Origin: an uncultured Flavobacteriaceae bacterium
GTDB taxonomy: Bacteria > Bacteroidota > Bacteroidia > Flavobacteriales > Flavobacteriaceae
Assembly (NCBI GenBank): GCA_963700435.1
Contig: CAVOXM010000006.1
Coordinates: 224,683-288,682, forward strand
Length of the DNA: 64,000 bases
Reading direction: 5' to 3'
Shown here: positions 37,858 to 54,988 of the stretch, piece after piece
Numbering within the stretch: position 1 is the first letter of the stretch
Layout: each line of letters opens with the position of its first letter
Notes under the pieces: model-generated
The model's input: the letters and a program-made list of their open reading frames with translations, nothing else
Databases searched by the model: none
What the model was told of the DNA's origin: nothing
Translations under genes and position numbers: made by a program

Positions 37858-38052
37858 ATGAGTAAAGGAACAGTAAAATTCTTCAATGATTCTAAAGGGT
37901 ACGGCTTTATCACTGAAGATGGTTCAAGCGAAGATCACTTTGTACACATTTCCGGTTTAATCGACGAAATTCGTGAAGGTGACGTTGTAGAATTTGAACT
38001 ACAACAAGGTAAAAAAGGACTAAACGCGGTAAATGTGAAAGTTATAGACTAG
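37858..38052 (+). CDS. Cold-shock protein
   Basis: GTVKFFN..KGYGFI (RNP1) and FVHIS (RNP2). Confidence 0.96.
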   Translation: MSKGTVKFFNDSKGYGFITEDGSSEDHFVHISGLIDEIREGDVVEFELQQGKKGLNAVNVKVID

Positions 38053-38077
38053 GAACGCATAAACTTTTTTAATACAG

Positions 38078-38105
38078 AGCCTCGACATTTGTCGGGGCTT
38101 TTTTA
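38078..38105 (+). terminator. Terminator of the cold-shock gene
   Basis: agcctcgaca-tt-tgtcggggct followed by a T-tract. Confidence 0.85.
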
Positions 38106-38327
38106 TGTTGAATCCATACTTTTATTCAAAAGATCAAAACTTTGTTGTAATTTATACGCAACCATCGTTCTTTTGGGCATCTTTTAAAAAAATCATTTGC
38201 CTCCCCCTGCACAAGATGCAAATAAAAGTGTCTTGACCAGTTTATATTTTTTATTTCCCCTACGCATCACGCTTATCGATTGAGTCGTCTTTGTTGCCAT
38301 TAATCATCTTAAAAAATCAGTACAGGA

Positions 38328-38414
38328 ATGATTACATTTTTTGCTATCATGTCAGCCTTGGTATTCGTCAATGTCATGTTACTGCTTATCAGTACCGGAG
38401 ACAAAAAGAAATGA
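38328..38414 (+). CDS. Small membrane peptide A (28 aa) MITFFAIMSALVFVNVMLLLISTGDKKK
   Basis: Hand translation; aligns without gaps to three other peptides in the window. Confidence 0.7.
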   Translation: MITFFAIMSALVFVNVMLLLISTGDKKK

Positions 38415-38643
38415 AGTACCAATAAAATAATTGCCCCCTTTTTAAAGTTGGTCAGCCACAAACTTCCTTTTATGGCTTTTTTTGATCGGTTTCAATCTAA
38501 AATAGTCAGCAACTGATAGGTCATGCCCCTTAGCGGGTTTTCCTTGCATTTTCCTCAACAATTTGGTCACTTTTATAATATAAATGGATTTTTTTCGTTA
38601 GCAACAAGATGATTTTCAATCCCAATCCTGTAGCCAAGAATCC

Positions 38644-38733
38644 ATGAGTATGTTTCTTTGCATTTTAACTTTTCTGATCTTCCTTAATGTTTTATTGCTG
38701 CGATATAGCGCAGTGGATGTCGATACGCTTTAG
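38644..38733 (+). CDS. Small membrane peptide B (29 aa) MSMFLCILTFLIFLNVLLLRYSAVDVDTL
   Basis: Hand translation; shares F4/L11/N15/S22. Confidence 0.65.
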   Translation: MSMFLCILTFLIFLNVLLLRYSAVDVDTL

Positions 38734-38811
38734 CCATACCCGGAGGTAGGGTTTTTCGCCAACAGGTTGTTTTAGATTAAAGGGCATATGGCCCAAAAAA
38801 ACAATTCCTAT

Positions 38812-38916
38812 ATGATTTCTTTTTTCGGTGTGCTGTTGGGCTTGGTTTTGATCAATACGATATTGCTCTTCTTGAGTCTTGATGGCCTTGGTAAATCGTC
38901 CAAGGATAAAGCATAA
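38812..38916 (+). CDS. Small membrane peptide C (34 aa) MISFFGVLLGLVLINTILLFLSLDGLGKSSKDKA
   Basis: Hand translation; shares F4/L11/N15/S22. An in-frame upstream ATG exists at 38788. Confidence 0.7.
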   Translation: MISFFGVLLGLVLINTILLFLSLDGLGKSSKDKA

Positions 38917-38940: not shown

Positions 38941-38972
38941 AAAAAAAACACCTTCGTCGAAGGTGCTTATTT
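38941..38972. terminator. Bidirectional terminator between the peptide cluster and the PPIase gene
   Basis: A-tract + caccttcg-t-cgaaggtg + T-rich tail. Confidence 0.75.
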
Positions 38973-39018: not shown

Positions 39019-39944
39019 TCAATTGATGCCCATCAATTCGACATCGAAGATCAGGATAGCATTCGGAGGAATGACACCGCCGGCCCCTGCACTTCCGTAA
39101 GCAAGATCGGAAGGTATCACAAACCTCGCCTTATCCCCTACTTTTAAGAGTCCGATTCCTTCATCCCAACCTGGAATGACCTGACCTACGCCCAATTGAA
39201 AATCGATCGGTTGCTTTCTTTTATAGGACGAATCAAAAACCTGCCCCGACAGCAGAGATCCTTCGTAGTGAACCGAAACCTCTTGTCCTTTTTCGGCCTT
39301 GGCACCATTTCCTTTTTGTATGATTTTATATCTAAGGCCGCTAGGGGTTTCATCGAAACCGGCGCCACCTTGTTCAATTCTTCTTTTTGTTTTTCACTTT
39401 CTGTCGCGATTCTTTTGGCCTTCGTACTTTCAAAGTCCCAAAGGCATCGAGTGCATCCCAATCCTTGCGGCTGACCGACCTTTAAATTTCAAGGCTCCAC
39501 CACATCGTCTTGGGCAATGGCATCAACGACTTCCTGGCCTTCCACCACTTGCCCGAAAACGGTATGTTTATTGTCTAGCCAAGGGGTGGCCACATGGGTG
39601 ATGAAAAACTGGCTTCCATTGGTCCCGGGACCGGCATTGGCCATGGATAGCACCCCGGGCCCGCTATGTTTTAGGTCTGGATGAAATTCGTCATCAAATT
39701 TATATCCTGGGTCTCCGGTACCGGTTCCCTTGGGACACCCCCCTGAATCATGAAATCGGGAATAACGCGATGGAATTTTAATCCGTCGTAGTAGGGCGTT
39801 CCTTCCGGTTTCACCGGAATTTTTCTTTAAGCCTTCGGCCAAAGCCACAAAATTTCCCACCGTTCCGGGGGTTTTGTCATGGGTGAGCTTCACCAATATT
39901 TCTCCTTTTGTCGTATTGAATTTCGCGTAGATTCCGTCTTTCAT
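39019..39944 (-). CDS. Peptidyl-prolyl isomerase, cyclophilin-FKBP fusion (several frameshifts)
   Basis: Cyclophilin motifs [14 protein letters not shown] and [19 protein letters not shown]; FKBP motifs [10 protein letters not shown] and [15 protein letters not shown] in shifted frames. Confidence 0.9.
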
Positions 39945-54807: not shown

Positions 54808-54988
54808 ATGTTGACTTTTTTTTCCATACTTTTTATTTTGATCGGCATAAATGCGGTAATAATGTTCTTCTCACTCAACAGCTTCGATTCGAAGGAACGC
54901 AGCAACCAGAACACCGTATCGCTCGCCCGATGACTCCAAAATCTATCCGATAGATTTACTTCCTTCAAAATACAAAAAGGCGATCTAA
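54808..54988 (+). CDS. Small membrane protein D, paralog of peptides A-C (probable frameshift near 54925)
   Basis: MLTFFSILFILIGINAVIMFFSLNS..., with shifted tail SKIYPIDLLPSKYKKAI-stop; promoter TAATTTTG at 54774-81. Confidence 0.7.

Follow-up and report, generated by a model that had tools for sequence, protein, structure and literature searches.

Annotation regularly overlooks small membrane proteins. Among the described examples, MgrB (47 aa) is induced by PhoP and inhibits PhoQ, and PmrR (29 aa) is induced by PmrA and inhibits LpxT, both acting inside two-component regulons. TisB, Ibs, Ldr and Fst are type I toxins, TisB being SOS-induced, and a patchy distribution is usual for type I loci; KdpF, CydX and AcrZ are encoded or co-regulated with their complex. 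MgrB, PmrR and YoaI count as small single-pass proteins inside stress regulons (PMC11429745). A dual-membrane-spanning anti-sigma architecture has been described for Dma1 (PMC10927553); Dma1 and Reo pair with the ECF21 sigma factors Das1 and EcfO in an outer-membrane stress response of Bacteroidales, and the Dma1-Das1/Reo-EcfO regulon is very small, consisting of NigD lipoproteins (PMC10927553, PMC9308784, PMC13114119).

Here we describe three tandem paralogous membrane peptides, A, B and C, encoded in a window of 64,000 nucleotides (the whole stretch of DNA analysed) from an uncultured bacterium of the Flavobacteriaceae (Table 1). They resemble MgrB, PmrR and YoaI in having no more than 50 residues and one transmembrane helix, in a putative control by envelope stress and in the predicted binding of a membrane protein. 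They share no sequence similarity with these proteins, the likeness being one of functional class and not of a homologous family; unlike them, they would be controlled by ECF sigma factors and not by two-component systems, and paralogues of a single array seem to answer to different sigma factors.

Table 1. Features of the peptide array and its surroundings, in window coordinates
Feature	Position	Strand	Details
Cold-shock protein gene (csp), upstream neighbour, separate unit	37858-38052	+	64-aa Csp ORF
Intrinsic terminator of csp	38076-38101	+	11-bp stem, then T run; invariant in relatives
ECF-type promoter motif 1 (ACGCAACC, spacer, GCATCT), putatively for peptide A	38156-38182	+	Strict match and PWM
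Putative 5' leader of peptide A; its C-rich blocks are conserved	38190-38327	+	Five-species alignment
Peptide A	38328-38414	+	28 aa, basic tail, ATG start
Conserved upstream box of peptide B, ending CGTTA	38570-38600	+	47-50 nt before ATG
Peptide B	38644-38733	+	29 aa, acidic tail, ATG start
Promoter-like motif 2 (GTAGGGT-N13-GTTGTT), putatively for peptide C	38746-38771	+	Conserved spacing, multi-genome
Peptide C	38812-38916	+	34 aa, ATG start
Hairpin common to convergent FKBP gene and array, probable two-way terminator	38946-38968	strand-neutral	Conserved in relatives
D-type unlinked paralogue upstream of crcB	54808-54988	+	Reading frame broken in this assembly

A preceding sequence-only reading had proposed three plus-strand ORFs at these positions and selection acting on their products. 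All three are present with ATG starts, lying between the csp terminator and the hairpin shared with the convergent FKBP gene, and the neighbours at the locus are csp, FKBP, cyclophilin and peroxiredoxin, Csp being 95-100% identical across syntenic loci. To an HMM built for a chance control from members of other species, with this genome and its four nearest relatives left out, the ORFs of A, B and C gave 40.4, 27.3 and 18.5 bits. When the gap was shuffled 1000 times with dinucleotides preserved, the top-scoring ORF per shuffle averaged 1.9 bits and peaked at 12.1 bits. One of the results that would have counted against the reading, equally good matches in shuffled T-rich DNA, did not occur: 0/1000 shuffles reached even the weakest of the three. 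Peptides A-C and a fourth copy, at 54808, were the only good matches in a six-frame search of the 3.36-Mb genome. Comparison within the genus shows saturation at synonymous sites (pS 0.72-0.80) and a pN of 0.23-0.28; pN/pS is 0.37 for A, 0.28 for B and 0.34 for C, values that are upper bounds on dN/dS. Variable columns occupy 9/29 second but 27/29 third codon positions in peptide B, and 6/22 against 21/22 in peptide C; orthologues of A-C contain no in-frame stops and their lengths are conserved. These patterns support purifying selection on the three peptides, in agreement with the earlier proposal, and we conclude that A-C are real genes, each encoding a single-pass membrane peptide (28-34 residues). 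An upstream ATG at 38788 was considered as the start of peptide C and rejected, the start used across the family being ATG 38812; a uORF overlapping the start of peptide B was likewise discounted, its frame being interrupted in relatives by a 1-nt indel.

Peptides A-C align without gaps, and M1, F4, L11, N15, L18, L19 and S22 are invariant among them. In a wider set of 37 members drawn from many genera, M1, F4, L11 and N15 do not vary, and L8, L18 and S22 show at least 90% conservation. Each peptide has about 50 residues or fewer and one transmembrane helix, with an uninterrupted hydrophobic stretch of 20 residues and a mean Kyte-Doolittle hydropathy of 2.1-2.6 over residues 2-21. AlphaFold2, given the 37-row alignment, models peptide C as one helix spanning residues 2-29; pLDDT exceeds 90 over residues 1-20. 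On a helical wheel, positions 4, 11, 15, 18 and 22 all fall within 0-60 degrees, and the tails carry charges of +2 (A), -2 (B) and +1 (C). The structural claims made from the sequence alone are borne out for the gapless alignment of F4, L11, N15, L18-L19 and S22, their disposition on one face, the Asn-centred face as the conserved part of the helix, and two basic tails beside one acidic. The presence of an invariant mid-membrane Asn on this conserved face argues for helix-helix association.

The family is widespread in Flavobacteriaceae and has escaped description. Neither Pfam nor NCBIfam gave an above-noise match for A, B, C or an extended C ORF, the ESM Atlas returned only unnamed clusters, below 0.8, and a search of a protein collection retrieved 81 relatives that, where named, are called "hypothetical protein" (Croceibacter, Ulvibacter, Aequorivita, Cellulophaga, Arenibacter); the suggestion of a real family of small membrane proteins without a described match is upheld. 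The array is present in 14/15 genomes of the same genus, the one genome without it being an 84%-complete assembly in 460 contigs. A search of Flavobacteriaceae genomes, as proposed with the original observation, found a member in 193/401 genomes and 159/302 genera sampled (E <= 0.001). None turned up among 258 genomes representing 17 further families of the order, nor in 24 genomes of one large Flavobacteriaceae genus (both at E <= 1e-4). Zobellia uliginosa, which is cultivable, carries the array beside csp, and Maribacter species have it too; judged by named relatives, the window belongs with uncultured Flavobacteriaceae MAGs close to Maribacter.

Within the genus, A (28 aa, basic), B (29 aa, acidic) and C (32-38 aa) are three orthologous subtypes of one family, situated between csp and the convergent FKBP gene and always in the order A-B-C, with A absent from some species. 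Family members occupy three conserved contexts: (i) csp followed by one to three peptides, with FKBP and cyclophilin on the opposite strand, in the genus and at least ten other genera; (ii) a 56-59-aa D type upstream of crcB, P-II and amt; and (iii) a 35-aa acidic-tailed type after a phosphorylase-family gene and a binding-protein-like gene. In genome G010 (locus L008:1181-1267, - strand) peptide B has lost its start codon because two nucleotides are deleted from a T run, and the CGTTA box before it has decayed, with peptides A and C intact; this startless copy is probably a pseudogene. A 55-aa protein from one metagenome contig (P0001) begins like the N-terminal 21 residues of a B-type peptide and continues as a complete C-type peptide; it may be a B-C fusion that occurs in nature, or an artefact created by a deletion. 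This protein hints that subtypes may pair with each other; a search for longer fused forms of the peptides found none, which is weak evidence.

The fourth copy, included as a fourth peptide in the sequence-only reading, is of the D type. Its ORF (54808-54933) specifies 41 aa, and the conserved C-terminal part of its 56-59-aa relatives continues in the +1 frame, indicating either a frameshift or an assembly indel. It follows a TAnnTTTG-type housekeeping promoter and has neither of the motifs described below. Two further genes of this genome are split into two frames and intact in relatives: the FKBP gene (window 39019-39461, - strand) and a FecR gene (contig C1:~558350-558530). With the D copy, these split genes make single-base indel errors likely in the assembly, and the FKBP and FecR interruptions in particular suggest such errors in this MAG.

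We infer from conserved upstream sequences that each of the three array genes has its own promoter region; scans for E. coli-type promoters are not meaningful for this phylum. Motif 1 comprises ACGCAACC, a spacer of 13-16 nt, and CATCT or CGTCT. It precedes 31/35 first-position peptides of contexts 1 and 3 (30 strict matches and one -35 variant) and none of the later-position or D-type peptides. Its AAC / CGTC-like design resembles Bacillus SigM, SigX and SigW sites; the -10 element is mostly CATCT, not the usual CGTC, which counts against the promoter assignment. The transcription start of peptide A, placed from the position of motif 1, would give a leader of roughly 140 nt here, compared with 15-40 nt in other genera. 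A TTCCCC-like box (here at window ~38250-38262) recurs in first-position leaders across genera, lying 25-35 nt before the ATG in loci L036-L062; in its place the 35-aa type has a conserved 5' hairpin (CTTACT ... AGTAAG) just upstream of the ATG.

Strict motif 1 occurs at three sites in this genome, all intergenic and each facing a gene: peptide A, an operon for a lipoprotein and an ECF sigma factor (sigma-1), and a small-RNA-like unit beside recA. With a PWM trained on other genomes, this one being left out, the three sites score 29.6-30.4 bits (30.2 for peptide A), and the next matches, at 25.9 bits or less, lie inside genes. Strict motif 1 is present in 71/76 named species. Upstream of the sigma-1 operon its ACGCAAC core stands at the expected place in 24/24 orthologous loci, and in more distant families without the intervening lipoprotein gene the core is found directly at -54 to -93 before sigma-1. 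For a sigma operon and unlinked genes to carry the same motif is a classical mark of autoregulation through an ECF promoter.

The sigma-1 operon encodes a 140-aa lipoprotein, for which Pfam gave no match (NigD included), sigma-1 itself (Sigma70_r2/r4_2/ECF) and a 522-aa partner matching OMP_b-brl_2 at 33.5 bits. For the partner, AlphaFold2 predicts two N-terminal helices (residues 4-18 and 23-34) followed by a transmembrane one (44-64); a disordered stretch of about 190 residues (65-255) then leads to strands over 279-521, with pLDDT 70-86 for the barrel. As modelled, it has the dual-membrane-spanning (Dma/Reo-like) anti-sigma architecture and is encoded beside an ECF sigma gene. The system would resemble Dma1-Das1 and Reo-EcfO in the cytoplasmic N-terminus, single transmembrane helix, long disordered linker and C-terminal beta-barrel of the anti-sigma factor, in the adjacency of sigma, anti-sigma and lipoprotein genes, and in a very small regulon. 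It differs in that the known members of those regulons are NigD lipoproteins, with no small membrane peptide reported, and the sigma-1 lipoprotein has no NigD domain match. Elsewhere in the genome, a paralogue of sigma-1 with 39% identity, also an ECF sigma gene, lies behind a near-variant of motif 1 (GGCAACC ... CCGTCT; contig C11:~102184-102210), and cross-talk between the two sigma factors is possible.

The small-RNA-like unit occupies about 150 nt behind motif 1, between recA and a rhodanese-family gene (contig C8:100299-100490, equivalent to L063:5300-5490, +; outside the window). Its central helix is conserved, a single-stranded stretch of GCUAUGAAGA does not vary, and its terminator shows compensatory changes; the unit is kept in 8/8 relatives checked, Zobellia included; no conserved ORF or Rfam match was found in it. 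We regard it as a candidate sigma-1-dependent small RNA.

Motif 2 is a different element, composed of GTAGGGT, exactly 13 nt and G-N-TGTT. It lies 38-51 nt before the ATG of C-type peptides, preceding 20/21 of these second-position genes with fixed spacing, and is absent before all first-position and D peptides. Genomes of the genus contain 3-9 copies, against 0-3 for the reversed control. It also occurs between an ECF sigma gene (sigma-2) and the gene for its FecR-type anti-sigma factor, 22-24 nt ahead of the latter, and divergently before a ~420-aa lipoprotein gene of the same locus; both of these placements recur in at least ten genomes of at least six genera. By Pfam, the sigma-2 row reads Sigma70_r2/r4_2, then FecR and FecR_C, then a CarbopepD_reg_2 N-terminus (the last gene read in part), which by gene content has the FecI/FecR-type arrangement for cell-surface signalling: sigma factor, FecR anti-sigma factor and TonB-dependent-transducer-like gene. 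A further match to motif 2, with the 13-nt spacer near-invariant across genera and the same site in most relatives, was seen at contig C2:146216-146241, ~260 nt before a family-2 glycosyltransferase-like ORF. Peptide B is preceded by its own box, whose CGTTA-to-ATG distance is fixed in 12 peptide B loci; all peptide B loci have a TAnnTTTG-like element further upstream, and a PWM of the box singled out no sigma gene.

Most simply, A and C would be members of two different ECF regulons, both trans-envelope and with a single-pass anti-sigma factor. The genes could be real and this assignment still wrong, if the motifs are sites of some other regulator or elements acting at the RNA level. In several genera a housekeeping-like TAnnTTTG box stands immediately before motif 1, and in some genomes a weak hairpin that follows the preceding stop codon overlaps motif 2. 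Such an explanation fits poorly with the bipartite form, fixed spacing and promoter-like distances of both motifs, with the position of motif 1 directly before sigma genes in distant families, and with motif 2 standing before FecR starts and in unrelated contexts. The upstream half of the hairpin at motif 2 is not conserved, for which reason motif 2 was rejected as the 3' half of a terminator hairpin. We consider it unlikely that the motifs are something other than ECF promoters.

Because A and C lie behind apparent promoters of two envelope-stress sigma factors, they are likely to be stress-induced modulators and not toxins or chance ORFs. The reading we favour, with moderate confidence, is that the peptides are stress-induced modulators of the inner membrane, A and C being wired to two ECF systems and the packing of their helices tuning a membrane protein. 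Under this model peptide A would be transcribed from a target promoter of sigma-1, and peptide C from a target promoter of sigma-2, which would be held by the FecR-type anti-sigma factor beside the TonB-dependent-transducer-like gene. When either trans-envelope signalling system fired, the matching peptide would be inserted into the inner membrane, where its F4-L11-N15-L18-S22 face could let it pack with itself or with a partner helix and thereby tune a membrane protein. One candidate partner is the signalling machinery itself, that is, the anti-sigma helix or its intramembrane protease. A more specific version, which we put forward only tentatively and think rather doubtful, makes each paralogue the cognate feedback peptide of one ECF system: docked by its Asn face on the anti-sigma transmembrane helix, or competing at the intramembrane site-2 protease, it would set the gain or duration of the response, and tandem duplication would have diversified a peptide layer of sigma/anti-sigma control.

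The sequence-only reading had left the choice open between modulators and type I toxin-like peptides. The modulator half is favoured by synteny, by the ECF-type promoters and by the fact that an antisense partner was not seen; the toxin half has become the less likely one. As toxins, the peptides would be stress-induced, would depolarise the membrane to slow growth, and would be curbed by an RNA antitoxin. A-C do have the character of small hydrophobic membrane peptides expected of this class, and share with TisB, Ibs, Ldr and Fst their size, hydrophobicity, tandem paralogous copies and a stress-linked expression that is here predicted from promoter motifs; the long leaders in this clade and the small-RNA-like unit behind an ECF-type promoter elsewhere in the genome would also suit such a role. 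Unlike those toxins, no antitoxin RNA was found by Rfam or sequence inspection: Rfam returned nothing real for the gap, and the opposite strand showed no TAnnTTTG-type promoter box on inspection. The predicted duplex of the small-RNA-like unit with the peptide A leader was not above shuffles, in an uninformative test of the A, B and C leaders. The locus itself also argues against toxins, since it is fixed, syntenic and vertically inherited, with three subtypes maintained across many genera under purifying selection, and we judge a toxin role improbable.

We hold it equally improbable that the peptides are constitutive small subunits of a membrane complex, comparable to KdpF, CydX or AcrZ, that happen to lie at this place. 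They share with those proteins a single helix with a conserved polar face, and the D type beside crcB and the 35-aa type of context 3 have fixed neighbours. The comparison with an operon-encoded subunit of the KdpF type, part of the original proposal, does not stand, because no membrane-complex genes are co-encoded with the peptides at the csp locus; moreover, no partner gene is common to the three conserved contexts, and A and C carry alternative-sigma-type motifs and not a housekeeping box.

A leaderless, secreted, bacteriocin-like multi-peptide set such as aureocin A70 would likewise present tandem paralogues of ~30 residues without signal sequences, but is very improbable here given the uninterrupted hydrophobic stretch, mixed-charge tails and lack of an amphipathic cationic design, the absence of exporter or immunity genes adjoining A-C, and vertical inheritance at a fixed locus. 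That the ORFs arose by chance in T-rich intergenic DNA, as their shortness and mostly unannotated state might suggest, is already refuted by the shuffle control, by conservation in the face of saturated synonymous sites and by the family-wide distribution, and retains virtually no probability.

Favouring stress-induced modulators, we regard the apparent promoter wiring of A and C, which the sequence-only reading did not contain, as the main new information. A family found in about half of the Flavobacteriaceae genera sampled has had no curated model, and its paralogues are apparently wired to two different trans-envelope ECF signalling systems. The output of Dma/Reo systems in Bacteroidales is barely understood, being known as NigD lipoproteins of unknown function, vesiculation and toxin protection. 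If the wiring holds, marine flavobacteria would offer a short effector list for a Dma/Reo-type system, comprising a lipoprotein, a 28-aa peptide and a small RNA. Two ECF sigma factors would then have defined promoter motifs, and the array would be a natural example of duplicated micro-proteins split among stress regulons.
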